A stretch of DNA of 64,000 bases from positions 92,682 through 156,681 of the forward strand of contig JBKQLU010000044.1 of the NCBI GenBank assembly GCA_052326585.1. Reading direction: 5' to 3'. The stretch comes from Desulfobaccales bacterium. GTDB taxonomy: Bacteria; Desulfobacterota; Desulfobaccia; Desulfobaccales; 0-14-0-80-60-11. The notes beneath the pieces are model-generated. The model was given only the letters and a program-made list of their open reading frames with translations. It made no database searches and had not been told where the DNA came from. Each line of letters begins with the position of its first letter. The first letter of the stretch is position 1. The translations under genes were made by a program, and so were the position numbers. Below are positions 28,299 to 59,659 of this stretch, piece after piece.

Positions 28299-28904
28299 AT
28301 GAGAGATGGGGGTAAAATGAGCGAGGGAGGCGCCGGACAACCCATTATCATCGTCTCTGGGTTGCCGCGCTCAGGTACTTCTTTGATGATGCAGATGTTA
28401 AGCGCTGGCGGTGTGGAGATTTTATCCGATGGCAACCGCGAGGCTGATCCGGACAATCCTAAAGGATACTTTGAATACGAGCCAGTTAAATCGTTGCGGA
28501 GAGATAACTCATGGCTGAAGGCGGCGGGAGGGAAGGCATGTAAAGTCATCTCTGCCTTGCTTCCTTATCTCCATCCGGAATTGAACTATAAGATTATCTT
28601 GATGAAGCGTCCCATGGCAGAGGTGTTAGCCTCTCAGCGCCAGATGAGGCAGCGACAGGGAACAGGCAGAAGCACTGCCAGCGATGGGACCCTGGGAGAA
28701 CTGTTCTCCAGGCAGCTAGTGCAAACGGAACATTGGTTACAGAACCAACGGAATATGGCGATTCTGGTGATCCGGTATCGGGACGCGGTTTGGAAACCGG
28801 AGGTCACTGCCATTACTGTTGCTCGATTTATCGGTATTCCCTTGGATATTGACGCAATGGGTAAGGTGGTTGACCCTGCTTTATACCGTAATGTCGACCC
28901 TTGA
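28299..28904 (+). CDS. PAPS-dependent sulfotransferase family protein
   Basis: 5'-PSB loop IIIVSGLPRSGTSLMMQML. About 200 aa. The start may be the ATG at 28317 (MSEGG...). Confidence 0.7.
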   Translation: MRDGGKMSEGGAGQPIIIVSGLPRSGTSLMMQMLSAGGVEILSDGNREADPDNPKGYFEYEPVKSLRRDNSWLKAAGGKACKVISALLPYLHPELNYKIILMKRPMAEVLASQRQMRQRQGTGRSTASDGTLGELFSRQLVQTEHWLQNQRNMAILVIRYRDAVWKPEVTAITVARFIGIPLDIDAMGKVVDPALYRNVDP

Positions 28905-29057
28905 TTGGCCCGAGCGGCGATATTTGTGAAATTTTTTAAACAAGTATTGACTTTGCCCTGACAGAGCTAAGGACATAATCATATTTTTAAATATGGCATG
29001 AAAATTGGTCAATATAATTCGCAGGCGAAGTAACTGGTGCCAAAGGGGTAAGAGACA

Positions 29058-29651
29058 ATGAACAGCGGTTTTTGTATATGGCTGACTGGGCTGAGTGCCT
29101 CGGGAAAAACCACCATTGCTAAGCTGGTGAAAAATGCTCTTCTATCCAGAGGGTTAAAGGTAGAGGTCTTGGATGGAGATGTGATCCGAAGGAACCTTAG
29201 CGAAGGCTTGGGATTTAGCCGTGCTGACCGGGAAATCAATTTACGGCGGATAGCTTTTGTGGCAGAGCTTTTGGTGCGCCACGGAATAGTAGTGGTGGTT
29301 GCGGCGATCACGCCTTATCAATCTATCCGTGAAGAAGTGCGGAGTACCATCGGTGAATTCTTTGAGGTTTATCTCAATTGCCCTTTGGAAATTTGCATTC
29401 AACGTGATCCTAAGGGCCTTTACAAGAAGGCGCTATCAGGCGAAATTCGGAATTTTAGCGGGATAGGTGACGTATATGAAACGCCGAGGCATGCGGATAT
29501 TGAATTGAAGACGCATTTGGAAAGCGCGGAAAATTGTATGCATAAAATTATTAAAACCATAGAAATCCTTAATAAAATCCCTCCAAAGGAGGATGGTTTT
29601 TTGGAAAAAGACAGCGATTTTTTCGAAAAACGCCAAATCATTTTAGATTGA
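29058..29651 (+). CDS. cysC: Adenylyl-sulfate (APS) kinase
   Basis: IWLTGLSASGKTTIA P-loop, LDGDVIRRNLSEGLGFSRADREINLRRIAFVAELL, GLYKKALSGEIRNFSGI. Confidence 0.92.
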   Translation: MNSGFCIWLTGLSASGKTTIAKLVKNALLSRGLKVEVLDGDVIRRNLSEGLGFSRADREINLRRIAFVAELLVRHGIVVVVAAITPYQSIREEVRSTIGEFFEVYLNCPLEICIQRDPKGLYKKALSGEIRNFSGIGDVYETPRHADIELKTHLESAENCMHKIIKTIEILNKIPPKEDGFLEKDSDFFEKRQIILD

Positions 29652-29769: not shown

Positions 29770-31800
29770 ATGGACAAATTTCAGATCATCACCTTAACCC
29801 CGTCAGGCTTCCCCAATGCTACGATAGCCATTGCCGGCTGTCGAGCTGACGGATTGGGGGTGTTAGATTTGGAGTATTGCCCGCACGCCCAGGCAGCTAA
29901 TGAAGCCATCAAGTCCCTCGCCGGTAACACCAGGAGTTCCTTCGGCGTTAAGTTCGCTGGGAATGATGTGGAACTCATAGAAGAGATCACTTCTAGCCCC
30001 CCAGAAAATCTGGACGTTGTCATCATAGGACGCATCGACCTGGACCAATTAAAGCGGCTCGTAGAAACGCAAAGCTTTAAGGGCTTCAGAGTTTTGCTTG
30101 AATGCACGTCATTGTCCGAGGCTCGCCTTGGAGAAGAGGCAGGGGTTGCGGGAGTTATTGCCAAGGGGCATGAAGCAGGCGGGTGGGTAGCTCAGGAAAC
30201 CACCTTCATTTTACTCCAGCAATTTCTCCATAGCCTCTCCATTCCGGTTTGGGCCCAGGGAGGTATAGGTCAACATACGGCCAGTGCCTGTTTTGCTGCG
30301 GGAGCGGCCGGGGTGATTTTGGACAGCCAATTGACCCTCACCCGGGAGTCTCCCCTTCCCGAAGCTATTAAATCGAGAATTGCGAACTTTGATGGCAGTG
30401 AAACCATTTGTCTTGGAGAGACATTGGGAGTACCCTTCCGGGTCTGCTCACGCTTGGGAACTCCGTTGATCAAGGAGTTGCAAGAATTTGAAAAACAACT
30501 AACCCGCGAGGGAACCGCTACGAGCGAGGGCTTGGCCCAATTCCGCCGCGCCATCGCTTCCCAGGTAGATTGGCAATCTCCGGAAAATAACCTCGTTCTT
30601 TTCGGGCAGGATATTGGGTTCGCAGCTCCTTTGGCCCACAAGTTTGAGACCGTTGGAGGGATTTTAGCAGCCATTCGGCAAACCATCAAAGGCAACTGTC
30701 AGGCGGCGGCGACTAACCAGCCATTGGCCCAAGATTCTCCTTTGGCCCGGTCCCATGGTACCAGCTATCCAATCGTTCAGGGGCCCATGGCCCGGGTAAG
30801 TGATAATCCAGCCTTCGTGGCTGCGGTGGCCAAGGGAGGAGCTTTGCCGTTTGCGGCGGCGGCCTGGATGCAAGCCCCTGAATTAAAGACCTTGCTTCAT
30901 CAGACCAAAACTCTCTTAAAAGACCAGGCCTGGGGGGTTGGCTTGTTGGGATTTCTGCCCCAAGAGGTATATTCCGAGCAAATCAAGGTAATCCTCGAGT
31001 TTCGGCCTCGTTTTGCTTTGATCGCCGGCGGACAGACCTATCAAGTTAAGCAATTGGAACAGGCGGATATTGCAACCTACGTTCATATCCCTACGCCAGG
31101 ATTACTTCGGATGTTCTTGGCCGAAGGGTTGAGCAGATTTGTCTTTGAAGGTCGCGAGTCCGGCGGGCATGTGGGACCTTTCTGTAGCTTTGTGCTTTTT
31201 GAAACAGCGATTAATGTGCTCTTGGAATCACCCGCGGTTAACAAGGCACCGGAGAATTATCATATCTTGTTCGCCGGCGGCATCCATGATGACTTGTCTG
31301 CCGCAATGATCGGAGTCTTGGCTGGCCAATTGATTGAGCGGGGCATCAAGGTAGGCCTCCAAATGGGTACCGCGTATCTTTTCACCGAGGAAGCGGTGTC
31401 CAGTGGAGCCATCGTCCGGACTTTCCAGCAAGAAGCCCTGCAATGCAACTCCACCACCTTGCTAGTTTCAAGTCCTGGCCATGCTGATCGTGTCATCGAG
31501 ACCCCATTCGTCCAGGTTTTCAACCAGGAAAGATGCTTGCAATCTGCATCAGGTGCCACGGTGGAGGCAATGCGCAACTCCCTGGACCGCATCAAAATAG
31601 GGCGATTGCGAATTGCCACCAAGGGTATCGCCAGAAATCCTAACCATAAAGATAATCCGCAAACGCCGAAGTTTATCAACCTGAGCGAGAACAAACAGCG
31701 GGCGCAGGGGATCTACCTGATTGGACAACTGGCTGCCATGCGGAGCCAGGTTGGCACCATTGCTTCCTTGCATCATGACATTTCCACCCTTGGAACAGCT
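29770..31800 (+). other. Domain: two tandem nitronate-monooxygenase/PfaD-like TIM-barrel (enoyl reductase) modules
   Basis: The first module (aa ~1-300) is divergent, with GGW in place of GGH. The second (aa ~330-680) is canonical trans-ER/PfaD-like. Confidence 0.65.
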
Positions 31801-34800
31801 CGAATCGACCAAAGTTGGCAAGAATGCTCCGAAGCTTATGCGCCTAGCGAGGAATCAGAGCCAGCGGATGTCGCCATTATCGGCATGGCCTGTCTGCTGC
31901 CCCGGGCTTCCAACCTTCAGGCCTACTGGGAAAACATTCTTAATAAGGTTAATGCCATCAAGGAAATTCCTGCCGAGCGTTGGGATTGGCGCCCTTACTA
32001 TGACCAGGATCGGGCCACCCGAGACAAAATCTGTTCAAGGTGGGGCGCGTTCATAGATGATATTCCTTTTGATCCAACGGCCTATGGCATGCCCCCCAAT
32101 TCTCTTTCTTCCATTGAGCCTTTGCAGCTTCTGACCCTTGAAGTCACCAAATGGGCCTTGGCAGATGCGGGGTATGCAAAACGGCCATTCCGTCGTGACC
32201 GCACCTCCGTTGTCCTTGGGATTAGCGGGTCCGGGGAACTCGCCCAGCTTTACAGCCTCAGGACCGCATTGCCCCAATTCTTCGGGGACCGATCCCGGGA
32301 TATACTGACCCATTTCGATGGGGTCCTGCCAGAATGGACAGAGGACACCTTCCCGGGCATTTTGATGAATGTCGCGGCGGGGCGTATCGCCAATCGGTTC
32401 AATCTGGGGGGAGCCAATTGTACGGTAGATGCAGCCTGCGCATCATCCCTGGCCGCGGCTTACTGGGCGGTGAGGGAGCTGGAAGCCCGGGCCTGTGATA
32501 TGGCCATTGTGGGTGGTGCAGATTGCATGCAAAATCCCTTCACCTATATGTGTTTTTCAAAGACCCAGGCCCTGTCGCTTCAGGGAACCTGTAACTCGCT
32601 GGATGAAGGCGCAGATGGCATCGTGCTTGGTGAGGGAATCACCGTAATGATTTTCAAGCGTCTTGCTGATGCTGAGCGGGACGGCGATCGTATTTATGCG
32701 GTCATTAAGGGGGTGGGAGCTGCCAGCGACGGGAGGGAAAAGAGCCTTACCGCGCCCAATCGGGAAGGGCAGGTCCGGGCCCTTGAGCGGGCTTATGCCA
32801 AGGCTCGCGTATCTCCGGCCGCGGTGGGACTAATTGAAGCCCATGCAACCGGGACCACGGTGGGCGACCGCATTGAGATTGAGTCCCTCAGTAAAGTTTT
32901 CAAAGATGCCGGAGCCGGGAGCCGGGGTTGCGCCATTGGTTCAATCAAGTCGATGATCGGGCACACCAAATCTTCCGCCGGATTGGCGAGCCTCATCAAG
33001 ACCACCCTGGCATTGCATCATAAAGTTTTGCCGCCGACGCTGGGAGTGGCAAGGCCTAACTCCGTCCTCCTTCTCCCTGATACCCCCTTCTATGTCAATA
33101 CCGAGTCACGCCCCTGGCTGAATGCTACGGAGAATCAGCCTCGCAGGGCGGGAGTCAGCGCTTTCGGCTTTGGGGGTACCAATTTCCATGTGGTCCTGGA
33201 AGAATATACGAGGAATTATCTCGACCAGCAGGGCTGTGCATCATTCCAGGATTGGCCGGTTGAGCTGTTTTTCTGGGAAAGAGGCTCTCGTCAGGAATTG
33301 GTGGAAGCCCTCGCTGCTTTTGAAGAATCATTGCGCAGCGGAGTCAACTCATCCCTTGGCGATCTGGCTTTTATGCATTTTACGGATCAGAGAAGAGCGC
33401 CTGCCGGAACGGAAGCACCTTTACGCCTGGCTGTGGTTGCCTCTTGTCGCAAAGATTTGCAAGGCAAATTAGCCAAGGCCAAGGAATCTTTGTCGAATTT
33501 TGATTCAACCTTATGCGATCCAACGGGAATTTATTTTAATGAACGCCCGCTGGCGCCGGCAGGCAAGGTAGCCTTTCTTTTCCCCGGCCAGGGGTCTCAG
33601 TATATCAACATGTTGGCGGACCTTGCTATTCAATTCCCCGAAATCCGAGCCAGGTTCGAGCAAAGCGATCGTCTTCTGGCGGGAAGGTTTCCCAGGCCAA
33701 TGACCAGCTATGTATTCCCGCCTTCAGCTTTTACTGAGGAGGAAATTTCTTCCCAGAAAGAAGCCCTGGCAGATACCCTGGTATCCCAACCTGCGGTAGG
33801 AACCGCCGGCCTCGCCTTATTTCATTTCTTGCAATCCTTGGGAATCAAGCCGGAAATGGTGGCTGGTCATAGTTACGGGGAATATGTGGCCTTGAGTGCG
33901 GCCGGGGTACTGGACCCCGATGACCTGATCCTCCTTTCGGAGGCCAGGGCGCGTTTCATTGTCGATAGCGCCGGGCCGCATCCCGGGGCCATGGCGGCGA
34001 TCAACGCCAAGGTTGACACCGTTAGCGCTCACATAAAAGGACTGGAGGGAGTCTGGGTCGCCAATGTAAATGCGCCGGAGCAGACCGTTATTTCCGGAAC
34101 CCGACCAGGTGTAGATGCCGCCGTAGATATTTTTCGCAAGGAGAATATCCGGGCCCGGATTATTCCGGTGAGTTGCGCCTTTCATTCCCCGATCGTTTCC
34201 CCTGCCTGCCAGGCTCTTGAGGCGTACCTCTCTACCCTTAAGTTGGGCTCGCCCAGGTTAAGGATCTTTTCCAACAGCACGGCCGCCCCTTACCCGGTGG
34301 AGCCTGAAGCCATTGCCCATCAACTCGTGAAACACTTGGAAAGTCGGGTGGAGTTTGTCCAGGAAATTGCCGCCATGTACGAAGATGGAGCCCGCATCTT
34401 CTTGGAAGTCGGGCCGGGCCGGGTATTAACAGACCTTGTGGGGCAGATTTTAAACCACCGTCCCCATCTGGCAGTGGCTAGCAACCCGGCCGGGCGATCA
34501 GGACTGGTGAGTCTGCTGCACGCTGCAGCTCAATTGCTGGCACATGGTGTTTCCGTCAACTTGGAGAAGATTTTCCAAGGCAGATTTTTTAAAAAGGTTG
34601 AGGCCACAGCGCCTGACCAGGATCAGATGCGAACTTCCTCAACCTGGATGGTGAATGGCGCCAAGGCCAGGCCTTTCAAGGAATCCGCCGCCTCAAGTGG
34701 CGGGATCAGGATTACCCCATTTCATTTTGTAGATACTAAAGGAACGAGAGCAACAGCGGCAATCTCAACCTCGGGATCTTTAAGAGGGGAAGGTGGCCGT

Positions 34801-37800
34801 AAACCCGTAAGCCTGTCTGGTTCAGGCTGCGATGCCTTGCCGGCTTCATCGCAGGATGAGCCTCCAAATAATCAGCCGGATCAGGTCATGCTCCAGTATC
34901 AACGTCTTATGCAGCGTTTCCTGGAAGCCCAGAAGGCCGTAATGCTGAAGTATCTCGAGGTTGCTGGTCAGACGCCGGTTCATTTCCAGGAGGGCAACAC
35001 ATCCGTCGCTTCGGTTGCGTTTAAAGAGGCGGCGGTGCCGCCGCTCTTGGGGGGGGAATCTGATACCCGCGGGTTAAGCCAGCCAAAATCATCTGACGTG
35101 AAGCAGGCGCCAGTTCCGGGGGGGATAGAGATAACCGCGCCTATCCTGTCTTACAACCAGCCCACTGCCAATCAGGAAGAGTTGAGCTCGACTCTTCTTA
35201 AAATCGTGAGCGAGCGAACCGGTTATCCCCCGGAAATGCTGGGCCTGGATTTGAGCCTGGAAGCGGATTTGGGCATCGATTCCATAAAAAGGACGGAGAT
35301 CATAGGCCATTTTCTGCAGTGCATCTTCCCGCTGGAGGACGGTGGACCTCCCGAAGAATTGACGGAGTTGAGCCGGGTAAATAGTTTGGGCGAGATTATC
35401 GAGCAGGTTGCGGCCTGTCGCATAAATTCTAGCCTGAGCGCCGCCATAATCCCATCTCCAGCGCCGCCCGCTATTTCTTTAATATCTCCCACTTCCTCTC
35501 AGGCTCAGGAACTTTTGCCGCGCTTCACTTTGACGGCGGTGCCCGCACCGGTCCCCACCGGTTCCGTACGCCTGGCTCCCGGGCGACTGGTGCTGATTAC
35601 CGATGATGGCCGGGGTATTGCCGCAGCCCTGGGGGAAAAATTACGGCAATACGGCTTAAAGACTGCTTTAGTGCGATTGGCTGGTGGCAGAACCACTGAC
35701 ACGGAATACTGTCTTGCGGATATTTCATCAGCAAGTTTGGCAAGCCTCTTGGAGACTATGCGGCGAGAGCAGGGACCAATTGGCGCCTTGGTTCATCTGC
35801 TGCCCTTGAGACCTTGGACCTCTTATGATGAACTTGATCTGGCAGGCTGGCGGAGTCGCTTGCAAGAAGACATTGTCGCACTTTATCAGCTCCTGAAATT
35901 GACAGCCCCGGATCTCAAGGAGGCGGCAGGGGCGGGCGGCGCCTGGGTGGTGTCTGCTTCCGGCATGGGAGGATATTTCGCCAGCGATCCTCTGCAGCAA
36001 ACAGATTTTTTCCCTGGACAAGGCGGTGTCGCCGGTTTGTTGAAGACGGTGGCGATAGAATTACCTGAAGTCCGAGTGAGGTGTGTGGATCTAAGTTTGG
36101 ACGAAGGGAATGCCGTGCTGGCGGAGTGTCTTCTCTCGGAGATCGAGGCTGGAGACGAAATGCTGGAGATAGGGTATCGTCATGGACAACGCCTGACTTT
36201 AGGTCTGCAGGAGATGCCCCTCTCAGCTCGCCAGGGAAATGGACTTCAGGTTGATTCCTCTTCAATCATCCTGGCTACCGGCGGCGCCCGGGGAATAACC
36301 GCCGCAGTGACCCTGGAAATGGTACGCAAGTACCAACCAATTCTGTTATTAGCGGGGCGGGCGCCCTTACCCCCAGAAAATGAAGGGGCCGAGACTGCGG
36401 GCTTGACCCAGCCCCAAGAATTGAAAGCTAGTCTGGTTGAGAGCAGAAGGCGCCAGGGGCAATCCATCAACCTCCCGGAGGTGGAAGCAGCTTACCGCAA
36501 TCTTCTCAAGGAAAGGGAAATTCGAGGCAACCTTGCCGCCTTACGCGCCGCAGGCTCCCAGGTGGCGTATTTTCAAGTGGATGTCCGAGATCCAGTCGCC
36601 TTCGGAGACCTCCTGGATCACATTTATAGCCATTACAGCCGGCTGGATGGCGTTATCCATGGGGCTGGCATCATTGAAGACAAAATGCTCCAGGATAAAT
36701 CCCGGGACTCTTTTGACCGAGTCTTTGGAACCAAGACAGAGAGCGCCTTTATCCTCAGTCGAAAGCTAAACCCTGAAACCCTCAAATTTCTAGTGCTCTT
36801 CTCCTCTGTGGCTGGGCGCTTTGGGAGCCGCGGCCAGAGTGATTATACTGCTGCCAACGAAGTGTACAACAAACTGGCTGTATACCTGGACCGGAAGTGG
36901 CCCGGGAGGGTGCTGGCCATCAACTGGGGCCCCTGGAAAACCGCTGGCATGGCATCGGCTGAAGTGCAGCGGCAGTTTCAAGAACGGGGAGTGCAGTTGA
37001 TAGAACCGGCTGCCGGGGCCAGGTCTTTCGACCTGGAGCTGCATCGGGGCTGCAAAGGTGAAGGAGAAGTAGTGATCGGTGACGGTCCTTGGCGGCAGCA
37101 AGCCTTTTCGCACCCAATTGACGTTGGTATCGCCGCCTCCCTACCACTGTTGGAGCAGTTCACTACATACCAGAAGCTCAATGGGCAGCTTGAGATCGTC
37201 AGACGTTTAGATCCGGATCATGATCTTTACTTGATGGATCATCGCCTGGACTCCAAGCCGGTGTTACCCGCAGCCATGGCCATAGAATTGATGGCTGAGT
37301 CGGCCCAAAAAAACTTTCCTGAGTGGCAAGTGGTCGGTCTCAAAGATGTGCGAGTATATAAAGGGATCGTCTTGGTTGATGGCTTTTGCGATATCCATAT
37401 TCTCATAGGCACGCCTGGGGCCTGCCCCCAGTCGTCAGCAAAAATGGAACTCGAGGTTACTATTAAGGGGACCTCCCGGCCAGAGCCGATATTTTACCAG
37501 GGAACGGTGATAATGAGTCCGGGGCCTATTTCCCCGGAAGCACATCATTTACCATCGGCGGAAGAATTCCAGGATTTCGGGATAGCCGCGGCTGAAGCTT
37601 ACCGCAGATTTACATTCCACGGCCCGCGTTTCCAAGGTATCCGAAGCATCTTGGGGATCAGCGAGAAAGGGATGCTCGCCACGGTGGCGCCTTCTTCGCC
37701 CCAATCCTGCCTGGCCGGTAACCCCTCTGGTCCGTGGCTTATCGACCCGGTGGCGATTGATTGCGGCCTCCAGATGGCCCTGCTCTGGGGGCGGACTTAT

Positions 37801-38061
37801 CTCGATATCACCCCTCTTCCTTCCAGTTTCAAGGAGATCTGGCTTTACGAACACTTCCACACCGCCGACACGCTAACCTGTTATTACGAGGTGCTGAAGA
37901 AATTCGGGGGACAGACCGTTTATGCCAACATCTATTATTTTGACCAGGAAGGCAGCCTCCGGGGAATCATTAAAGAGTTTGAATCCACCGGGAGCAAGGA
38001 GTTAAATCGGTTAGCCGGTTCTCATCTCCGAGAAGGAGATTTATCTCTTCGTAATAAATAG
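29770..38061 (+). CDS. Iterative-type PKS/PUFA-synthase-like megasynthase: tandem NMO/PfaD-like ER - KS - AT - ACP - KR - DH (2763 aa)
   Basis: ER region: KGHEAGGWV...AQGGIG, then YPIVQGPMARVSD...FEGRESGGHVG...FAGGIHD. KS: DAAC(890)ASS, EAHATGT, IGHTKSSAG. AT: GQGSQ, GHS(1368)YGE, CAFHSP. ACP: DLGIDS(1838)IK. KR: ATGGARGIT, SDY(2359)TAAN. DH: MDH(2491)RLDSKPVLP. Confidence 0.9.
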   Translation: MDKFQIITLTPSGFPNATIAIAGCRADGLGVLDLEYCPHAQAANEAIKSLAGNTRSSFGVKFAGNDVELIEEITSSPPENLDVVIIGRIDLDQLKRLVETQSFKGFRVLLECTSLSEARLGEEAGVAGVIAKGHEAGGWVAQETTFILLQQFLHSLSIPVWAQGGIGQHTASACFAAGAAGVILDSQLTLTRESPLPEAIKSRIANFDGSETICLGETLGVPFRVCSRLGTPLIKELQEFEKQLTREGTATSEGLAQFRRAIASQVDWQSPENNLVLFGQDIGFAAPLAHKFETVGGILAAIRQTIKGNCQAAATNQPLAQDSPLARSHGTSYPIVQGPMARVSDNPAFVAAVAKGGALPFAAAAWMQAPELKTLLHQTKTLLKDQAWGVGLLGFLPQEVYSEQIKVILEFRPRFALIAGGQTYQVKQLEQADIATYVHIPTPGLLRMFLAEGLSRFVFEGRESGGHVGPFCSFVLFETAINVLLESPAVNKAPENYHILFAGGIHDDLSAAMIGVLAGQLIERGIKVGLQMGTAYLFTEEAVSSGAIVRTFQQEALQCNSTTLLVSSPGHADRVIETPFVQVFNQERCLQSASGATVEAMRNSLDRIKIGRLRIATKGIARNPNHKDNPQTPKFINLSENKQRAQGIYLIGQLAAMRSQVGTIASLHHDISTLGTARIDQSWQECSEAYAPSEESEPADVAIIGMACLLPRASNLQAYWENILNKVNAIKEIPAERWDWRPYYDQDRATRDKICSRWGAFIDDIPFDPTAYGMPPNSLSSIEPLQLLTLEVTKWALADAGYAKRPFRRDRTSVVLGISGSGELAQLYSLRTALPQFFGDRSRDILTHFDGVLPEWTEDTFPGILMNVAAGRIANRFNLGGANCTVDAACASSLAAAYWAVRELEARACDMAIVGGADCMQNPFTYMCFSKTQALSLQGTCNSLDEGADGIVLGEGITVMIFKRLADAERDGDRIYAVIKGVGAASDGREKSLTAPNREGQVRALERAYAKARVSPAAVGLIEAHATGTTVGDRIEIESLSKVFKDAGAGSRGCAIGSIKSMIGHTKSSAGLASLIKTTLALHHKVLPPTLGVARPNSVLLLPDTPFYVNTESRPWLNATENQPRRAGVSAFGFGGTNFHVVLEEYTRNYLDQQGCASFQDWPVELFFWERGSRQELVEALAAFEESLRSGVNSSLGDLAFMHFTDQRRAPAGTEAPLRLAVVASCRKDLQGKLAKAKESLSNFDSTLCDPTGIYFNERPLAPAGKVAFLFPGQGSQYINMLADLAIQFPEIRARFEQSDRLLAGRFPRPMTSYVFPPSAFTEEEISSQKEALADTLVSQPAVGTAGLALFHFLQSLGIKPEMVAGHSYGEYVALSAAGVLDPDDLILLSEARARFIVDSAGPHPGAMAAINAKVDTVSAHIKGLEGVWVANVNAPEQTVISGTRPGVDAAVDIFRKENIRARIIPVSCAFHSPIVSPACQALEAYLSTLKLGSPRLRIFSNSTAAPYPVEPEAIAHQLVKHLESRVEFVQEIAAMYEDGARIFLEVGPGRVLTDLVGQILNHRPHLAVASNPAGRSGLVSLLHAAAQLLAHGVSVNLEKIFQGRFFKKVEATAPDQDQMRTSSTWMVNGAKARPFKESAASSGGIRITPFHFVDTKGTRATAAISTSGSLRGEGGRKPVSLSGSGCDALPASSQDEPPNNQPDQVMLQYQRLMQRFLEAQKAVMLKYLEVAGQTPVHFQEGNTSVASVAFKEAAVPPLLGGESDTRGLSQPKSSDVKQAPVPGGIEITAPILSYNQPTANQEELSSTLLKIVSERTGYPPEMLGLDLSLEADLGIDSIKRTEIIGHFLQCIFPLEDGGPPEELTELSRVNSLGEIIEQVAACRINSSLSAAIIPSPAPPAISLISPTSSQAQELLPRFTLTAVPAPVPTGSVRLAPGRLVLITDDGRGIAAALGEKLRQYGLKTALVRLAGGRTTDTEYCLADISSASLASLLETMRREQGPIGALVHLLPLRPWTSYDELDLAGWRSRLQEDIVALYQLLKLTAPDLKEAAGAGGAWVVSASGMGGYFASDPLQQTDFFPGQGGVAGLLKTVAIELPEVRVRCVDLSLDEGNAVLAECLLSEIEAGDEMLEIGYRHGQRLTLGLQEMPLSARQGNGLQVDSSSIILATGGARGITAAVTLEMVRKYQPILLLAGRAPLPPENEGAETAGLTQPQELKASLVESRRRQGQSINLPEVEAAYRNLLKEREIRGNLAALRAAGSQVAYFQVDVRDPVAFGDLLDHIYSHYSRLDGVIHGAGIIEDKMLQDKSRDSFDRVFGTKTESAFILSRKLNPETLKFLVLFSSVAGRFGSRGQSDYTAANEVYNKLAVYLDRKWPGRVLAINWGPWKTAGMASAEVQRQFQERGVQLIEPAAGARSFDLELHRGCKGEGEVVIGDGPWRQQAFSHPIDVGIAASLPLLEQFTTYQKLNGQLEIVRRLDPDHDLYLMDHRLDSKPVLPAAMAIELMAESAQKNFPEWQVVGLKDVRVYKGIVLVDGFCDIHILIGTPGACPQSSAKMELEVTIKGTSRPEPIFYQGTVIMSPGPISPEAHHLPSAEEFQDFGIAAAEAYRRFTFHGPRFQGIRSILGISEKGMLATVAPSSPQSCLAGNPSGPWLIDPVAIDCGLQMALLWGRTYLDITPLPSSFKEIWLYEHFHTADTLTCYYEVLKKFGGQTVYANIYYFDQEGSLRGIIKEFESTGSKELNRLAGSHLREGDLSLRNK

Positions 38062-38065
38062 CAGG

Positions 38066-41000
38066 TTGAGTTTAATGGCAGGCAAGGACTTTAAAGGAAA
38101 CAAGGTTTCCGCGCCAGGTGAGGTAGCCATCATCGGGATGGCCTGTATCTTCCCCAAGGCTCCCAATTTGCAGACCTTCTGGCAAAACATCGTCTCGAAG
38201 GTAGATGCCATTGATGATCCGGCTGAAGCAAGCCTGACCAGTCAGGTATATGACCCAACCTCCACGGCGAATAACCGCATTTACTGTAAGCGCGGCGGTT
38301 ACTTGAAAGAATTACCCCCTTTCAATCCCGCCGATTTCGGGATTATGCCGGTGGCGTTGGACGGGTCGGAACCGGAACATTTTATGGCCCTTAAGATAGC
38401 TTACGATGCCCTGGCGGACGCCGGCTATCCTGATAAGCCATTTAACCGCGAACTTACCGAAGTCATCCTGGGCCGAGGCACCTTCGTCAACCGGGCCTAT
38501 ATCAGCATGTTGCAGCATGTCCTGGTGGTGGATCAAACCATCAAAATTCTCAAAGAGTTGCATCCAGAGCACACCACGGCAGAACTGGAATCTATCCGGG
38601 AAAGGCTCAAAGCTAGCCTGCCGCCCTTTACTCCTGATACCGCCCCCGGTTTACCCCATAGTGTGATGGCCGGCATCATCGCCAACCGACTGGACTTGAA
38701 AGGCCCCAGTTTGGTGATAGACGCCGCTTGTGCCTCCTGCTTGCTGGCTTTAGAGATTGGCATGCGAGACCTGCTGACTGGGCGATGCGATGCCTGTCTG
38801 ATCGGCGGCGTCCAGATCTCTACTCCGGCCCCTATCCACATGCTCTTCACGCAACTGGGGGCCCTCTCCCATCTACCCCAGTTGAGGCCGTTCGACCAGA
38901 GGGCTGACGGCACTATGCTGGGCGAAGGGATCGGGATGATGGTTCTCAAGCGTAAGGAAGATGCAGTCAGAGACGGCCATCGGATTTATGCTCTGGTAAA
39001 AGGGGTGGGAGCATCCAGCGACGGCAAGGGTAAAGGCCTGCTGGCGCCTCAAGTGGAAGGGGAAGAACTGGCCCTGCGGCGAGCCTATGAGGCAGCAGGG
39101 GTGACCCCGGACACCATCGGCTTGATTGAGGCACACGGGACCGCCTTGCCCCTGGGCGATATTACCGAAATCGAGGCCCTGCGGCGGGTCTTTGGTGGTC
39201 GGAATAGCGGCTTCCCCCGCGTGGCCTTAGGAACGGTGAAATCCATGATCGGCCACCTCATCCCGGCGGCGGGCATCGCGGGGTTAATCAAGGCGGCCTT
39301 GTCCTTATATCACAAAATTTTGCCTCCCACCCTCCATGCAGAGGAGCCCAATCCCGCGCTGGAGATGGAGCGAACCCCTTTTTATCTGAATACGGAAACC
39401 CGACCTTGGATTCACGGTTCCTCCCGGCTGCCGCGTCGCGCCGGGGTTAATTCCTTTGGATTCGGCGGCATCAACACGCATGCGGTGCTGGAGGAATATT
39501 CCGGTGAAGCGGCTCCTGCGGAACTCTATCACCGGATCTGGGAAACAGAGCTCATCCTCATTGAAGGCGCGACCCGCCAGGAACTCATTGACCAGTGCGA
39601 TCTTACCCTGGAATTTTTGGCTCACCAGGCTGAAGCAGACCTGGTAGATATCGCCTCCAGCCTGAACCGACGTCTGAAAGGTAAGCCATACCGGCTGGCC
39701 ATTGTCGCGGAGTCATTGGAAAATCTGGTCAAAAAGTTGAGCCACGGCAGCCAAAAGCTGAGAGATCCAAACCGGGGTCAGATTAAAGATAGAAGCGGTA
39801 TCTACTTTTTTGAAAATCCATTGAGTGGACCGGGAAAACTGGCCTTTCTCTTCCCGGGGGAGGGTTCCCAATATGTGCATATGCTCCAGGATCTTTGTCA
39901 GCATTTCCCTGAAGTAAGAAATTGCTTCGACCTCCTGGATCAAGCGTTTAGCGACCATCCCCGGAACTACCTACCCAGTCAGATCATATTCCCGCCGACG
40001 GAAAAAGATGTTGCCGAAGCGGGGACCAGAATCTGGCAGATTGATGGCGCGGTGGATGCGGTGATCACGGCAGATCGGGCCCTTTTTCGGTTGCTCACTC
40101 TCTTGGGTGTCACTCCCGATGGCATCGCGGGGCATAGCAGCGGTGAACTGATGGCCCTGGAGGCGGCAGGCGCCGTCGCCCTGCGGGGCGACGAAGAACT
40201 GGTCCGGCTTATCAAGGCCGGCAACCAGATGCTCGAAGCCTTGATGGCGGCCCAGGATATCCCGACGGGGGTTCTGCTGGCGGTAGGCGGAGTGGATCGA
40301 CCGGCCATTACCGCAGTCATTGAAAAAAGCTCTGAATTTTTGGTGCTCGCCATGGATAACTGCCCCCATCAATTTGTGCTTTGCGGGACAGAAACCTCCA
40401 TCGCGGCCGCCAAAGCAAAGTTTCTCGAGCTGGGGGGCATCTGTCAATCTTTGCCGTTTACGCGGGCCTACCATACGGAACGCTTTGAACCTATTCTGGG
40501 GCCACTGCGTAACTATTTTCAGAAAGCGACTATTGTATCACCTGCTATTCCTCTCTATTCGTGCATGACCGCAGGGCCTTTCCCTCAGGAGCCAAAAGAA
40601 ATTCGGCGTTACGCGGTGCAACAGTGGGCCAAGCCAGTGCGCTTCCGGGAAACGATTGAGGCAATGTATCAGGATGGTTTCCGGATCTTCCTGGAGGTGG
40701 GCCCTCGGAGCAATCTGACCAGTTTCGTCAATGATATTTTAAAAGGCCAATCGTTTCTGGCAGTGGCCGCTAATGTGCACCAGCGGTCCGGGATCACGCA
40801 ATTGAACCATGCTTTGGGTGTTCTCGCGGCCCATGGTGTGGCCATGAAACTGGATGTCTTGTATAAGTATCGAGCCCCCCGGCAGTTGGATATAGAATCT
40901 GGTGTCGCCGCGCCTCCCGGGAAGCACACCCCAGGCGTCATCCTATCACGAGAATTGCCACTGTTGACCCTGGGAAAGGATGATACTCCCCACGACCAGG

Positions 41001-43570
41001 TTAGGCCCGGGACGCAGTTGGAAGCACAACCGGATAGGCCTCAGCACTGCCAGGTAGGTAATCGAGACATTTGTTCCACTATTCCGAAGAGGACAGATAC
41101 TATTTTTCCGGAAAAACTAGGGGCAGCGCCCGGAACGGAGCTAAGCGCAGCAGAGAATTCTTTTTCAACGGAGAAAATGGCTAAACTGGGCCAAAGGCTA
41201 GGGACCCAGGCAGTCATGCAAGAGTATCTGGCCACCATGGAAGGGTTCCTGGAAACCCAGGAGCAAATTATGCTGGCCTATATTCAGGAAGGCTCTCTCT
41301 CCCTGGGCGAGATTGAGCCTCGGAGCGGAGTGCGGCACCGTGAGACCGACATTCAGGGTGGTTCTGAGATTGCATTTGGGAAAGAATTGACTGCGGTTTC
41401 TCCTCCTGCCCCCAGACAGGTCGAACCGCAAACCCTAAACCTCAACAAGGAATCGACCGTTGCCGCCTCTACGAGGGCTCAGGCCCCGGAGAAGAACCTG
41501 GCCTCGCTACTCTTGTCCATTATCAGTGACAAAACCGGTTACCCGCTTGATATGCTGAATGAGCATCAAAACCTGGAGGCAGACTTGGGGATCGATTCCA
41601 TTAAGCGGATCGAGATCCTGGGAATGCTGTTCCAGCAGCGTGAAGCGCTTACAGTACCCCCCGAGGATCTCGGGTCGTTGCGGACGGTGGCGGAGATCGT
41701 AGCGTTCCTGTCAGCATCGCCGGACACCAAGAGCATTGCGCCGGGAAAGCGCCCAGTTATCCTGGTACAGAAGAGTGGTGGAGCGCCTGGCGATGACGAC
41801 AACCCTGAACTGCCCTTGGTTCTGCGGCCGGGAGGTAGAATAGTCTACTTGGTGCCCCATCAGGAAGTCAGGGTGAATAGAATTCTGGATGTGGAGGAAG
41901 ACCTATTTCTCCGGCATCATACGCTGGGGGGACAGGTGTCCCAAATTACCCCAGAATTGCTGGCGCTGCCGGTTGTTCCCCTCAGCATGAGCTTGGAAAT
42001 GATGGCTGCGGCGGCTGTCCTTCTGAACCCGCAAAAACACCTCGTGGGTATGAAAAATATCCAGGTACACGATTGGCTAGCGATGACTGAGGGAAGCCTT
42101 GAGCTGGAAATAACGGCTCAAGTCCAGTCGGCAACTGCCATCGAGGTGCAGTTGCGCAAGCAGGATTCTACGTCCAAGCAAGCCAAAAAGCCTCGCCTGG
42201 CACTGGAAGGTACCATGATCTTTGGGGGAGAATATCCCGCCGCTCCTGATGCCGGACCCTTTGATCCTGGGGTTGAACTCCCATCAATTCCCCCACCGGA
42301 GGATTTCTATCCCCAAGCTCTTTTCCACGGTCCGTTGTTCCGCTCTGTCAAGGAGATCAGGTATTCCGGCAAAAATGGCGTAGAGGCGGTCTTGGAGAAT
42401 ACGCTCACCCAGCCTTTCTTCCGGAACCAGCCCTCTGACCTTTTTTTGACCAACCCGATTCTTTTGGACGGGGCCGGGCAAGTGGTAGGTCTCTGGGCCA
42501 TTGCCTCCTTGGAATCGACTTTTGTAATCTTTCCTACGATGATAGATGAAATCACCTTTTACGCTTCCCTCGGGGGTCGGACAGGAGAGGTTATTTGTCG
42601 CATTAACCCTCACCTCGAAGGCAATACCAGGATAACTTCAGATATCCGGCTAGTTGCAGAAGACGGGACCTTGTTGGTCCATCTCCAGGGGATGCACCAC
42701 AACCGGCTTAAGCTGCCAAAGATTCTTCATCTCTTTAGGGGTTCGCGGGAGATCATGCTCAGCAGTCCCTGGCGGCTGCCCCTTGCCTCCCTGCCTGAGT
42801 CTAAAAAGATGACCTGTAATCGGCTTGACCCCTTGCCGGTGGAATTCAGTGGCGCTGAAGGCCAGATTTGGCTGAATGTGATAGCTCATATAGTGCTTAG
42901 TAATGAAGAGCGCCAGACTTGGGTTCAACTTTCTGACCTTGATAAACGGCGTATCGAATGGTTAATGGCGCGCCTGACGGGCAAGGAAGCAGTCCGGCGC
43001 CTATTGCAAGAGAATTACAGCCTTGATGTGTGGCTGGCGGATATTGACATTTATCAAGACAACCGGGGGAAACCCTTGGTCCGGGGAGAATGGCTCAACA
43101 AGATCGAAGCGGCGCCAGCGCTGTCTCTGACGCATTCTAACGGAGTCGCTGTGGCCTTGGCTGCGGATAGCTCATCTGGCATCAGCGTCGGGGTCGATAT
43201 CGAATCAGTTCATCGTCCGGGGAAAGGCTTTCCCGAGGTAGCCTTTGCTCCCGAAGAACGGGATCTTCTGCCGCCCCCGCAAACGCCGGAATTCCACGAG
43301 TGGTGCTTACGCCTCTGGTGTGCCAAAGAAGCTGTGGGGAAGGCCTTGGGCCGGGGATTGCCAAACCTGCTGCGAGATTTGAAAGTGGTAGCGGTAAATA
43401 GTCAGACAGGAATAATCAGCGTGGAGGTGACGAATAAATTGGCCCAGGATTATCGACACCTGGCCGGTAAACCTCTCCAAGCTTACACGGCAGGCTCCGA
43501 AGAATTTATTGTGGCAAGCGCATTCATTAAGGAAGTCTCCGGAAACCGCGCGACATCCAAGAACGCTTAA
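38066..43570 (+). CDS. PKS megasynthase: KS - AT-like - ACP - DH - Sfp-type PPTase (1834 aa)
   Basis: KS: DAAC(222)AS, EAHGTA, IGHLIPAAG. AT: GEGSQ, GHS(691)SGE, RAYHT. ACP: DLGIDS(1178)IK. DH: LRHH(1285)TLGG. PPTase: GVDIESV, FAPEER, WCAKEAVGKALG. The start lies 4 nt after the upstream stop (TTG at 38066 or ATG at 38075). Confidence 0.9.
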   Translation: MSLMAGKDFKGNKVSAPGEVAIIGMACIFPKAPNLQTFWQNIVSKVDAIDDPAEASLTSQVYDPTSTANNRIYCKRGGYLKELPPFNPADFGIMPVALDGSEPEHFMALKIAYDALADAGYPDKPFNRELTEVILGRGTFVNRAYISMLQHVLVVDQTIKILKELHPEHTTAELESIRERLKASLPPFTPDTAPGLPHSVMAGIIANRLDLKGPSLVIDAACASCLLALEIGMRDLLTGRCDACLIGGVQISTPAPIHMLFTQLGALSHLPQLRPFDQRADGTMLGEGIGMMVLKRKEDAVRDGHRIYALVKGVGASSDGKGKGLLAPQVEGEELALRRAYEAAGVTPDTIGLIEAHGTALPLGDITEIEALRRVFGGRNSGFPRVALGTVKSMIGHLIPAAGIAGLIKAALSLYHKILPPTLHAEEPNPALEMERTPFYLNTETRPWIHGSSRLPRRAGVNSFGFGGINTHAVLEEYSGEAAPAELYHRIWETELILIEGATRQELIDQCDLTLEFLAHQAEADLVDIASSLNRRLKGKPYRLAIVAESLENLVKKLSHGSQKLRDPNRGQIKDRSGIYFFENPLSGPGKLAFLFPGEGSQYVHMLQDLCQHFPEVRNCFDLLDQAFSDHPRNYLPSQIIFPPTEKDVAEAGTRIWQIDGAVDAVITADRALFRLLTLLGVTPDGIAGHSSGELMALEAAGAVALRGDEELVRLIKAGNQMLEALMAAQDIPTGVLLAVGGVDRPAITAVIEKSSEFLVLAMDNCPHQFVLCGTETSIAAAKAKFLELGGICQSLPFTRAYHTERFEPILGPLRNYFQKATIVSPAIPLYSCMTAGPFPQEPKEIRRYAVQQWAKPVRFRETIEAMYQDGFRIFLEVGPRSNLTSFVNDILKGQSFLAVAANVHQRSGITQLNHALGVLAAHGVAMKLDVLYKYRAPRQLDIESGVAAPPGKHTPGVILSRELPLLTLGKDDTPHDQVRPGTQLEAQPDRPQHCQVGNRDICSTIPKRTDTIFPEKLGAAPGTELSAAENSFSTEKMAKLGQRLGTQAVMQEYLATMEGFLETQEQIMLAYIQEGSLSLGEIEPRSGVRHRETDIQGGSEIAFGKELTAVSPPAPRQVEPQTLNLNKESTVAASTRAQAPEKNLASLLLSIISDKTGYPLDMLNEHQNLEADLGIDSIKRIEILGMLFQQREALTVPPEDLGSLRTVAEIVAFLSASPDTKSIAPGKRPVILVQKSGGAPGDDDNPELPLVLRPGGRIVYLVPHQEVRVNRILDVEEDLFLRHHTLGGQVSQITPELLALPVVPLSMSLEMMAAAAVLLNPQKHLVGMKNIQVHDWLAMTEGSLELEITAQVQSATAIEVQLRKQDSTSKQAKKPRLALEGTMIFGGEYPAAPDAGPFDPGVELPSIPPPEDFYPQALFHGPLFRSVKEIRYSGKNGVEAVLENTLTQPFFRNQPSDLFLTNPILLDGAGQVVGLWAIASLESTFVIFPTMIDEITFYASLGGRTGEVICRINPHLEGNTRITSDIRLVAEDGTLLVHLQGMHHNRLKLPKILHLFRGSREIMLSSPWRLPLASLPESKKMTCNRLDPLPVEFSGAEGQIWLNVIAHIVLSNEERQTWVQLSDLDKRRIEWLMARLTGKEAVRRLLQENYSLDVWLADIDIYQDNRGKPLVRGEWLNKIEAAPALSLTHSNGVAVALAADSSSGISVGVDIESVHRPGKGFPEVAFAPEERDLLPPPQTPEFHEWCLRLWCAKEAVGKALGRGLPNLLRDLKVVAVNSQTGIISVEVTNKLAQDYRHLAGKPLQAYTAGSEEFIVASAFIKEVSGNRATSKNA
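42860..43567 (+). other. Domain: in-cis 4'-phosphopantetheinyl transferase
   Basis: RRIEWLMARLTGKEAVRRLL, LSLTHSNGVAVALA, GVDIESV, WCAKEAVGKALGRG. Confidence 0.8.
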
Positions 43571-43630: not shown

Positions 43631-43945
43631 ATGTGCCCACAAAAAACTGACAACGAATCCAAAGGACGCCTTTCCAAGGAGACTATTTTTGAAGAGGTTT
43701 CCAAGATCTTGGCAGATATGACCAGTGATTGGGACATTGATTTTTCGGGGGGGATTACACCTGATACTCAGATAATATCGGACCTGCAGTTCGAATCTAT
43801 CGATGTCGTCCAGTTCATTGTGCAACTTGAGGGTAAATTTCAACGCAAAGACCTGCCCTTCGAAAAACTCTTGATGGTGGATGAACGCTATCGGGATGAT
43901 TTTACGGTGCAAGAAGCGGTTGACTTTCTCCAGAAAAATCTCTAA
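43631..43945 (+). CDS. Stand-alone acyl carrier protein-like protein
   Basis: 104 aa. A four-helix-type sequence with ISDLQFESIDVVQFIVQLE (Ser in the ESID attachment context). GGAGG SD. Confidence 0.65.
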   Translation: MCPQKTDNESKGRLSKETIFEEVSKILADMTSDWDIDFSGGITPDTQIISDLQFESIDVVQFIVQLEGKFQRKDLPFEKLLMVDERYRDDFTVQEAVDFLQKNL

Positions 43946-51672: not shown

Positions 51673-51715
51673 TCGAACCCCTATTATGAAGATTAATAAA
51701 AAGGAGAGCTACCCG

Positions 51716-57525: not shown

Positions 57526-57583
57526 AAAGGTGTAGCTGGCCCACCCTGATTTTAAGGGATTGTGCCTGAAAGGAGGGGGACCC

Positions 57584-59098: not shown

Positions 59099-59659
59099 GT
59101 GATGCATAAGAAAATGGACAGGCAAAAATTGATCGTTATCGTCACCCTGGGTTTTTTCTGGATTTGCGCCCAAACTCTGGGTGGCTGTGTGGTTTTTCCA
59201 GCGGTGGCCATCCGCGGCGCCGCTCCCTATGAGGGAAACCTGGCTCAGACCGATCTCCCCGAACTGGCTCACCGGGAGGATGTTATCGATCTTGCCTGCC
59301 GCCTTGGAGAATGCCTCGGTTACGCGGTTTCCTTGAAAACCGATGACACCATTATCTTGTTATACGAGACGTCTGAGATTAAAGAGCCAGTTACCGGCGA
59401 TTATCAATCGACTAAAATATTCGTTTATAAAGTGAAACCATTTACGTTAAATTCTGCTCAATCCAAGGATAAAGACTTTGAAAGAATATATCGGAAAATC
59501 ATGCCGACCCAACACACAGAGACAACGGTGCATCTTGCTGTTTATGATGGTGGTGTTTATCCTGCCGGTGTCCAAGAAAGTGTCAATAACATAATGGAAG
59601 ATTTTAAAACAAGATTGCTCTTTTTGGCCTCGCGCTCGCCGTCTGACAAGGGCCTTTAG
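59099..59659 (+). CDS. Hypothetical lipoprotein
   Basis: Lipobox TLGGC after a hydrophobic h-region. No recognisable family. Confidence 0.55.
   Translation: MMHKKMDRQKLIVIVTLGFFWICAQTLGGCVVFPAVAIRGAAPYEGNLAQTDLPELAHREDVIDLACRLGECLGYAVSLKTDDTIILLYETSEIKEPVTGDYQSTKIFVYKVKPFTLNSAQSKDKDFERIYRKIMPTQHTETTVHLAVYDGGVYPAGVQESVNNIMEDFKTRLLFLASRSPSDKGL

Follow-up and report, generated by a model that had tools for sequence, protein, structure and literature searches.

A small sulfotransferase gene (ST1) and an adenylyl-sulfate (APS) kinase gene (CysC) stand at the front of a cluster of polyketide synthase (PKS) and lipid genes in a Desulfobaccales bacterium. We consider, with a probability of about 0.5, that they form a recruited two-gene sulfation cassette at the 5' edge of this cluster, which decorates an exported lipid. 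What the two genes most likely give the product is a sulfate ester, presumably a stable one, and not a sulfate which acts as a leaving group. A previous examination of the letters alone (the sequence-only reading) had proposed both options; the stable ester has come out as the better supported, while the leaving group that ends in an alkene did not stand up to comparison with the CurM/OLS systems. The window, by which we mean the whole stretch of 64,000 nt that was analysed, has in this cluster both hydroxyl-forming enzymes and export genes, as the sulfation cassette would need. The host would supply APS from its respiratory ATP sulfurylase, as in sulfate reducers; CysC would phosphorylate APS to PAPS and ST1 would move the sulfo group onto a hydroxyl of the cluster product. 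The latter is presumably a reduced, methylated, hydroxyl-bearing long chain, to judge from two PKSs, two short-chain dehydrogenases/reductases (SDR) and three methyltransferases. The stable anionic sulfate ester would then leave the cell through a HlyD/OEP pair, and two PilZ fusions may put its production or release under c-di-GMP control.

We will start with ST1, which is found on the + strand at 28299..28904 as an ORF of 201 aa. Its start is probably M7 (28317), which gives a protein of 195 aa, since most homologues start there and a G-rich Shine-Dalgarno-like stretch lies just 5' of it. Pfam recognizes Sulfotransfer_3 (E 8e-13, 49.6 bits, cut-off 27) and Sulfotransfer_1 (E 5.6e-8). Two features are invariant in an alignment of 38 homologues: the 5'-PSB loop GLPRSGTS (residues 21–28) and the 3'-PB pair R104...S112, two positions eight residues apart. 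With the profile of the ST1 family this pair is aligned with the R130/S138 region of SULT1A3, in the segment YVARNPKDVAVSYY. ST1 keeps every residue that is invariant in its family. An AF2 model has a pLDDT of 89.5, and its top 40 Foldseek matches in the PDB are all sulfotransferases, with TM 0.5–0.58 on the query. The PSB loop, the 3'-phosphate site and the fold place this minimal protein in the superfamily of PAPS-dependent sulfotransferases, which is its predicted activity. Indirect support for PAPS-dependent transfer comes from the CysC and CysQ-like genes which adjoin members of the family. The small sulfotransferase with a PRSGTS loop that had been read on the + strand is genuine, as is apparent from Pfam, the invariant motifs and the fold match.

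The next gene, CysC, at 29058..29651 of the same strand, codes for an APS kinase of 197 aa. It matches PF01583 with E 1.2e-59 (201 bits, cut-off 21.1), TIGR00455 with E 2e-66 (223 bits, cut-off 138.7) and the APS kinase 5CB6 of the PDB with E 5e-57; the P-loop GLSASGKTT and the LDGD motif are conserved in the alignment. By these three comparisons it is canonical, so that the bona fide APS kinase announced ahead of the megasynthases on their strand is confirmed. The window ORFs of 150 aa or more which were submitted to Pfam gave no ATP sulfurylase, CysD or CysN domain, in agreement with the earlier statement that the window has no sat or cysDN. The submitted set comprised all cluster genes and, for nearly all loci upstream of them, the longer of the ORFs; alternate-frame ORFs overlapping identified genes were left out of it. 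The order Desulfobaccales, to which the source annotations assign this metagenome-assembled genome, includes sulfate reducers, in which APS is made for respiration and PAPS is not needed for assimilation. Since cysC accompanies this type of sulfotransferase even where there is no PKS, an assimilatory role for ST1-CysC is unlikely.

All the genes of the cluster that follow are found on the + strand. PKS1 (29770..38061, 2763 aa) starts 118 bp 3' of cysC and has, according to Pfam, an NMO/PfaD-like ER region and KS, AT, ACP, KR and DH domains. PKS2 (38066..43570, 1834 aa) has KS, AT, ACP, DH and a C-terminal PPTase; no KR was found in it by Pfam. Neither PKS has an ST or a TE domain in Pfam, ST1 being a separate gene upstream of both. 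A small ORF of 104 aa (43631..43945) is ACP-like by a weak PP-binding match (E 0.0035, below the cut-off). It is always placed immediately 5' of a phosphodiesterase (PDE) gene, where a counterpart 52–72% identical is found in loci L093, L094, L095 and L103. We considered this ORF as a partner of PDE-sulfotransferase cassettes elsewhere and rejected it: it is found in PKS clusters only. The PDE itself (43972..45552) is an NPP-type enzyme of the alkaline-phosphatase superfamily (PF01663, E 1.9e-37). Its invariant residues are D10, T49, D216, D219, H223, D277, H278 and H426, with T49 as the candidate nucleophile. Its AF2 model (pLDDT 85.6) is matched by Foldseek to ENPP1 (9e-15), PhnA, ENPP6, Xac NPP and PafA.

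Next comes an alpha/beta hydrolase fused to the c-di-GMP-binding domain PilZ (45570..46754; Abhydrolase_1 E 8e-29, PilZ E 5e-11). A protein of 770 aa (46780..49092) has an N-terminal part of 530 aa of unknown nature and a C-terminal SAM methyltransferase recognized by Pfam; like PKS2, it is conserved in L093, L094 and L103. It is followed by a methyltransferase of 298 aa (49100..49996, Methyltransf_11 E 1.9e-19), by two SDRs of 275 aa (49993..50820, adh_short E 2.9e-55) and 261 aa (50887..51672, adh_short E 7.6e-55), and by an esterase similar to PHB depolymerases (51653..52687, NF050058 E 2.1e-50, Esterase_PHB). A further methyltransferase of 265 aa (52770..53567) matches Methyltransf_11 with E 2.9e-19 and has a CMAS-like match with E 2.6e-9. 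The second PilZ domain is found by Pfam at the C-terminus of a TPR protein (53647..55089). The export genes code for a HlyD-type membrane-fusion protein of 762 aa (55237..57525, HlyD_3 E 1.9e-13), whose N-terminal 440 aa have no Pfam match, and for a TolC-like outer-membrane efflux protein (57560..59005, OEP E 3.2e-44). The final + strand gene of the block (59099..59659) codes for a protein of 186 aa with no Pfam match, which is also found in the same-species contigs L090–L092.

The order ST1-CysC-PKS1 is present in loci L005, L007, L096 and L101, with identities of 65–77%. Partial orders are found in L097, which has CysC-PKS1 only, and in L100, with ST1-PKS1. The upstream flanks of these six loci are mutually unrelated. 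The recurrence of the order in six other metagenomic lineages with different flanks shows that the pair belongs to the cluster, and the linkage of the sulfotransferase and cysC to the PKS genes, as it had been proposed, is thus a matter of conserved synteny. The cluster is also distinguished by its composition: GC3 is 0.56 in ST1 and 0.58–0.61 in the PKSs, against 0.71–0.87 in the genes upstream of this low-GC3 island, which begins at a tRNA-Pro. A PKS/lipid cluster of about 31 kb has been acquired horizontally, with ST1-CysC at its conserved front edge. For the more distant versions of the cluster, the loci L093, L094 and L103 start only within PKS1; their contigs had no members in the ST1-family clusters in an indirect and unreliable look-up, limited to the 120 best matches and 10 inspected clusters. 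A metagenome scan with the N-terminus of PKS1 gave only four short loci, two of which (L098 and L099) belong to more distant, unrelated PKSs. A conserved c-di-GMP riboswitch governing the cluster was also considered and discarded: RF03167 is found only in the window and in L001 of the same species, and is absent from L005, L007, L101, L096 and L100.

The ST1 family is much wider than the cluster. We found 3986 homologues, in most phyla, and the family is present in hundreds of genomes without this PKS. In a set of 80 genome loci, about 27 have a PDE at 10 kb or less from ST1, mostly directly upstream or fused to it; a sulfatase-family AlkP adjoins ST1 in 9 more, and two thirds of the loci have no PDE nearby. 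CysC is adjacent in 5 of the 80 and a CysQ-like IMPase in 4. The usual partner of the family is an NPP-type phosphodiesterase with TPR repeats, not a PKS. The sequence-only reading had missed this widespread family and its usual partner. In at least 12 of the 80 loci, from Bacteroidota, Planctomycetota and Methylococcales, a single protein combines PDE, TPR and sulfotransferase. From L104, L105, L010, L053, L013, L064 and others we have defined a grouping PDE(NPP-type)-TPR-ST1(-CysC). In L104 and L105 the ST1 and CysC genes overlap by their stop and start codons. An operon PDE-TPR/ST1/CysC/UbiA without PKS has an ST1 which is 65% identical to that of the window, and the identity with the cassette sulfotransferases P0025 and P0018 is 63–65%. 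In an NJ tree all PKS-linked ST1s group in a single clade, which has L010 as its sister and lies within the PDE-linked sulfotransferases. The ST1-CysC pair of the window descends from a PDE-TPR/ST1/CysC cassette. Both have orthologous ST1s, adjacent ST1 and CysC and an NPP-type enzyme whose metal ligands agree; however, the cassette of the window is found inside a PKS cluster and its PDE, which has no TPR, is neither adjacent nor fused to ST1.

These observations bear on the acceptor of the sulfo group. ST1 may act on a general acceptor of its family instead of a polyketide, as suggested by its conservation of all family-invariant residues and by its 65% identity to the ST1 of an operon without PKS. 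ST1 and the NPP-type PDE could both act on such a family-wide acceptor, for which a nucleotide, a protein and a phosphorylated lipid alcohol or head group come into question. The linkage to the PKS would then arise because the pair modifies a partner molecule or some generic moiety of the cluster product, and the PDE would either expose the hydroxyl for ST1 or remove PAP. The frequency of PDE or AlkP neighbours in the 80 loci, the fusions in three different groups, the operon without PKS and the nesting of the PKS-linked clade argue for this possibility. So does the PDE of the cluster itself, whose residues D10, D216, D219, H223, D277, H278 and H426, the metal ligands, are invariant in the fusions; Ser takes the place of T49 there. 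Furthermore, an ST1 identity of about 50% across phyla, with many invariant residues not related to the cofactor, suggests a conserved acceptor. Nevertheless the window PDE is only 27–29% identical to the fused domains, differs from them by an insertion (about 130 aa) and by the lack of TPRs, and lies 15 kb downstream of ST1. It is also a core gene of L093, L094 and L103, whose loci start within PKS1, and the majority of ST1 loci lack a PDE. We consider this explanation possible, although doubtful. A split PDE-TPR-sulfotransferase system in the window has been rejected in its TPR part: the TPR-PilZ protein is nearer to an unrelated housekeeping TPR (80 bits) than to the TPRs of the fusions (at most 49 bits), to which its likeness is merely generic. 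A more elaborate proposal, which we find unlikely, is a two-step swap of a phosphate head group for sulfate by the NPP-type PDE and the minimal sulfotransferase, with CysC, as a widespread enzyme system. After cleavage of a phospho(di)ester by the PDE, the sulfotransferase would sulfate the hydroxyl thus exposed; in Desulfobaccales the swap would be wired into a lipid PKS and yield an exported sulfolipid at the expense of APS otherwise used in dissimilatory sulfate reduction. As the least likely case, ST1-CysC might be a separate unit for sulfur assimilation or general PAPS metabolism, found beside the PKS by chance. The gaps between ST1 and cysC (153 bp) and between cysC and PKS1 are AT-rich and have promoter-like matches, which would permit independent transcription. 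Against it we have the order conserved in six other lineages, the shared island composition and the lack of PAPS reductase, sat and cysDN near the pair; moreover, a sulfotransferase plays no part in assimilation. Such a coincidence is extremely improbable.

The remaining explanation is the one put forward by analogy with curacin A (CurM) and the olefin synthase (OLS) of Synechococcus PCC 7002, for which sulfate as a leaving group is established (PMC3903477). ST1 would sulfonate a beta-hydroxyacyl thioester and a discrete hydrolase would hydrolyse, decarboxylate and eliminate sulfate to give a terminal alkene. The cluster does have a sulfotransferase, a PAPS supply, two discrete genes of serine-hydrolase type and PKSs devoid of TE; both systems share a PKS-associated, PAPS-dependent sulfotransferase and, at the superfamily level, its fold, the CurM and OLS enzymes being among the fold matches of ST1. 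However, in CurM/OLS the sulfotransferase is a domain of the terminal PKS placed after the ACP, whereas ST1 is discrete and there is no TE of the CurM type. Nor is ST1 a specific relative: its family profile gives E 0.0059 with the CurM sulfotransferase 4GBM and 0.35 with 4GOX, against 1.6e-5 with SULT1A3 and 3.8e-5 with TPST; BLASTP aligns only 26 residues with the CurM core; TPST2, Teg12, OLS, CurM and 3-OST rank essentially equal in Foldseek. ST1 is no nearer to the CurM/OLS sulfotransferases than to TPST, SULTs or Teg12. The best match of the single sequence in the PDB and the best one in Foldseek are in fact TPST1/2, with a nearly identical 5'-PSB loop, G(L/V)PRSGT(S/T): GVPRSGTT in TPST and GLPRSGTS in ST1. 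This likeness is mainly due to the P-loop (E 0.1 with a single sequence); moreover, some 100 residues of TPST have no counterpart in the shorter ST1, for which no peptide substrate is evident.

The hydrolases also differ from the CurM thioesterase. In the case of the alpha/beta hydrolase, Abhydrolase_1 and the PDB point to an esterase or meta-cleavage-product (MCP) hydrolase type: the best 60 PDB matches comprise esterases, MCP hydrolases and epoxide hydrolases, the CurM TE is not among them, and the Pfam Thioesterase match (E 5.7e-4) is below the cut-off. A terminal module that leaves a beta-hydroxyl has KR and no DH; PKS1 has both domains and PKS2 has DH without KR, so that a retained beta-hydroxyl is not predicted from PKS2, although a KR or SDR could act in trans. 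Finally, the ST1 family occurs overwhelmingly without PKS, and the efflux genes suit an amphiphile better than a hydrocarbon. Alkene formation is therefore very unlikely: the ST-TE logic of CurM/OLS finds no support in the cluster and, at the level of sequence, there is no basis to call it a split olefin-forming system. An attractive but unsupported analogy is thus removed.

Biosynthetic clusters in which a sulfotransferase and an APS kinase are embedded have been described before. The cylindrospermopsin cluster has a tailoring sulfotransferase and its own adenylylsulfate kinase (CyrJ/CyrN). Other cases are the clusters of paralytic shellfish toxins, with SxtN/SxtO for saxitoxin (PMC2679770), and that of the sulfated adipostatins (PMC12135136). 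As in the SxtN/SxtO type, the Desulfobaccales cluster contains PKS genes, a free-standing sulfotransferase and an APS kinase, has no ATP sulfurylase, and would presumably use sulfate as a stable decoration. It differs by its minimal sulfotransferase of about 195 aa, which has no NCBIfam model, and by its iterative PKS/lipid type, which is uncharacterised. A literature search gave no characterisation of this cluster type or of the ST1 family and no known product of the cluster. If the sulfation cassette acts as we propose, members of an order of sulfate reducers would make a sulfated lipid or polyketide, for which a single added kinase would draw activated sulfate out of the APS pool of respiration; energy metabolism and secondary metabolism would thus be linked in an economical way. 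It would also offer a first clue to the function of a PKS/lipid cluster which is conserved across Thermodesulfobacteriota, and of a family of minimal sulfotransferases with thousands of members in bacteria and Bathyarchaeia. The recurrent fusion of this family with NPP-type phosphodiesterases suggests a coupled reaction, so far undescribed.

The window has a second sulfotransferase, ST2 (61644-62798, - strand), found at its far end beside the genes of a Na+/sulfate symporter and of TauE; it went unmentioned in the earlier reading. Of the two sulfotransferases ST2 is by sequence the closer relative of the CurM enzyme, which is its best PDB match (E 1.2e-10). We have rejected it as a PKS-associated CurM-like enzyme: it runs convergently to the cluster, as part of a self-contained module of ST2, symporter and TauE. 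This module is also found without any PKS (L102), and it runs on into an operon of redox enzymes past the window.

ST1, the small sulfotransferase ahead of the polyketide synthases, is encoded by an ORF of 201 aa at 28299–28904 (+), which scores above the Pfam cut-offs of both Sulfotransfer_3 (E 8e-13) and Sulfotransfer_1 (E 5.6e-8). Neither its 5'-PSB loop SGLPRSGTS nor its 3'-PB pair R104/S112 varies among 38 aligned homologues; the family profile matches the R104/S112 stretch with its counterpart segment in SULT1A3. The top PDB fold-search matches of its AF2 model (pLDDT 89.5) are sulfotransferases only. M7, whose codon has a G-rich stretch ahead of it, is where most homologues begin, so that the real gene is probably 28317–28904. 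CysC, at 29058–29651 (+), is an APS kinase (PF01583, E 1.2e-59; TIGR00455, E 2e-66; PDB 5CB6, E 5e-57), and 118 bp 3' of it, on the same strand, starts PKS1 (29770–38061). The sequence-only reading had described a small sulfotransferase with a PRSGTS loop and a bona fide APS kinase ahead of the megasynthases on one strand, in a window with no ATP sulfurylase. All of this is confirmed, the last point by a scan of window ORFs from 150 aa upwards: none of those scanned has an ATP-sulfurylase, CysD or CysN domain.

The order ST1-CysC-PKS1 is repeated in four other lineages (L005, L007, L096 and L101), with protein identities of 65–77%. A short contig, L097, retains CysC-PKS1 alone, and in L100 ST1 is found immediately ahead of PKS1. 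The 5' neighbours of ST1 vary by locus: glycogen phosphorylase and ion exchangers, thioredoxin and a peptidase, or a two-component system. Since the upstream genes differ in each locus while the order persists, ST1 is the conserved left edge of the block. Its codon composition is like that of the island, that of cysC is somewhat lower. The two intergenic gaps, ST1-cysC and cysC-PKS1, are AT-rich and contain promoter-like matches; the sole terminator-like hairpin ahead of PKS1 is a weak five-pair stem within the 3' end of cysC. Gene identities and synteny, as well as the cassette ancestry discussed below, come from tool results.

Tailoring sulfation is the best-supported account of this pair. 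APS would come from the host, CysC would convert it to PAPS, ST1 would sulfate a hydroxyl of the cluster product, and the anionic product would leave through the HlyD/OEP pair; what we infer here is the acceptor, the stability of the ester, the way out of the cell and where the APS comes from. It is established physiology that sulfate reducers obtain APS through their respiratory ATP sulfurylase, and they are not known to need PAPS for assimilation. Published examples exist of clusters with their own sulfotransferase and adenylylsulfate kinase (PMC2679770, PMC12135136), so that the logic of the pairing is already known. New are the host order Desulfobaccales, the uncharacterised PKS/lipid cluster and a minimal sulfotransferase from an uncharacterised family, usually partnered with an NPP-type phosphodiesterase.

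It had also been proposed that sulfate is installed as a leaving group by the CurM/OLS ST-TE logic, which gives a terminal alkene. Its hallmarks are a terminal module in which an ST domain follows the ACP, a dedicated TE and a module with KR only, which leaves the beta-hydroxyl behind (PMC3903477). We checked all three and the window has none of them: ST1 is a separate ORF and not a domain after an ACP, and PKS2 (38066–43570, +) has a DH and no KR. Thus membership of the CurM/OLS family is less likely and the proposal is not sustained. That sulfate acts as a leaving group through enzymes unrelated to CurM/OLS is compatible with these results, though improbable. Comparisons of sequence and of model place ST1 at a similar distance from all characterised sulfotransferase families. 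With the single sequence as query, the PDB yields nothing beyond the TPST P-loop (E 0.1). The profile of the family scores SULT1A3 at 1.6e-5, TPST at 3.8e-5 and CurM ST at 0.0059, and Foldseek lists TPST2, Teg12, OLS ST, CurM ST and 3-OST within the range 3e-5 to 9e-5. BLASTP aligns 26 residues of ST1 with the CurM ST core.

ST1 has 3986 homologues, usually 186–205 aa long, with around 50% identity between phyla, Bathyarchaeia included; no NCBIfam model exists for it. Neighbourhoods were counted in 80 species-representative genomes, where the recurrent neighbour is an alkaline-phosphatase-superfamily protein, not a PKS. A PF01663 phosphodiesterase (PDE), mostly with TPR repeats, is found within 10 kb at about 27 of the 80 loci. 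At 9 further loci the homologue adjoins a PF00884 sulfatase-family protein, which is a second partner type from the same superfamily. In at least 12 of the 80 there is a single PDE-TPR-ST polypeptide of 850–1040 aa (L053, 7814–10564; L013, 7442–10558; L064, 4088–6952; also L028, L036, L045, L046, L055, L081, L089 and L020). These fusions belong to Bacteroidota, Planctomycetota and Methylococcales and have no N-terminal signal peptide. CysC adjoins in 5 and a CysQ-like IMPase in 4 of the 80 loci. In nine loci the PF00884 protein ends about 28 bp 5' of the ST1 homologue; in the one from L018 (8577–9938) a reading of the sequence finds no C/S-x-P-x-R formylglycine motif.

Two operons, L104 (2766–7124) and L105 (734–5126), contain PDE(-TPR), a homologue 65% identical to the window ST1, CysC and a UbiA-family prenyltransferase gene; the start of CysC overlaps the stop of the sulfotransferase and no PKS is present in the operon. 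They show ST1 and CysC moving together as a cassette and hint at a lipid-type acceptor. The PKS-linked ST1s group as a single clade in an unbootstrapped neighbour-joining tree. This clade lies within a set of PDE-linked and fused forms, and a PDE-TPR-linked sulfotransferase from a deltaproteobacterial MAG is sister to it. The simplest history is that the PKS cluster captured an existing ST1-CysC cassette once.

The cluster has its own PDE (43972–45552, +), with an NPP-type two-metal site and Thr as candidate nucleophile. Across 36 homologues D10, T49, D216, D219, H223, D277, H278 and H426 do not vary, and its AF2 model (pLDDT 85.6) matches ENPP1, phosphonoacetate hydrolase, ENPP6, Xac NPP and PafA. 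The metal ligands are kept in the fused proteins. The identity with them is just 27–29%, and the window PDE has about 130 extra residues and no TPRs, so that its tie to ST1 is suggestive.

The rest of the cluster is on the + strand. PKS1 contains an NMO/PfaD-type ER region, KS, AT, ACP, KR and DH; two NMO/PfaD-like regions open it ahead of the KS (29770–31800). PKS2 contains KS, AT, ACP and DH, and is closed by an integrated PPTase domain (43100–43570); enediyne-type iterative PKSs end likewise. An ACP-like ORF of 104 aa (43631–43945; weak PP-binding match, E 0.0035; motif FESIDVVQF) is directly 5' of the PDE gene every time in related clusters (52–72% identity), and none is found near PDE-ST cassettes elsewhere. 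There follow an alpha/beta hydrolase-PilZ fusion (45570–46754), a 770-aa protein with a methyltransferase at its end, two further methyltransferases, two SDRs, a PHB-depolymerase-like esterase, a TPR-PilZ protein (53647–55089), a HlyD-type protein, an outer-membrane efflux protein and, as last gene, an unknown 186-aa protein (59099–59659). This last protein is conserved, as are the N-terminal 530 aa of the 770-aa protein (46780–48369) and the N-terminal 440 aa of the HlyD-type protein (55237–56556); Pfam matches none of the three, even at E 5. Three other Thermodesulfobacteriota/metagenome contigs keep the block that runs from PKS1 to HlyD (PDE identity 47–73%). Two different proteins of the PKS cluster carry a fused PilZ domain, which implies that c-di-GMP controls a step of biosynthesis or release.

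The MAG is assigned to Desulfobaccales in the source annotations. GC3 is 0.71–0.87 in the upstream genes (housekeeping 0.73–0.87, PEP-CTERM gene 0.71) and 0.45–0.67 from ST1 onward. Near this break is tRNA-Pro(GGG) (26052–26128, +), with the PEP-CTERM gene just past it, and the independent contig L001 starts right after the tRNA; tRNA and compositional break fit a genomic island, whose junction is seen in a single assembly. A c-di-GMP-I-GGC riboswitch aptamer (RF03167; 26638–26720, +; 71.5 bits, gathering score 59) is found 150 bp 5' of the DUF4114/PEP-CTERM protein gene (26869–27546), also in L001, which is from the same species. It was not found upstream of ST1 in L005, L007 or L101.

A second sulfotransferase, ST2 (61644–62798, –; 384 aa), has CurM ST as its nearest solved relative (E 1.2e-10) and is closer to it than ST1. 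In its module (60193–63951, –; also L090) it stands between a TauE-family transporter (60193–61317) and a Na+/sulfate symporter (62818 to past the window end); past that end the module runs on into a redox-enzyme operon. ST2 is 70–83% identical across Nitrospirota, Deltaproteobacteria and Burkholderiales. The three genes are also found without PKS, in a different order and with an ORF of 35–36 aa after TauE (L102). We treat the module as an independent neighbour of the PKS cluster; a small sulfated molecule may be what this module produces and exports.
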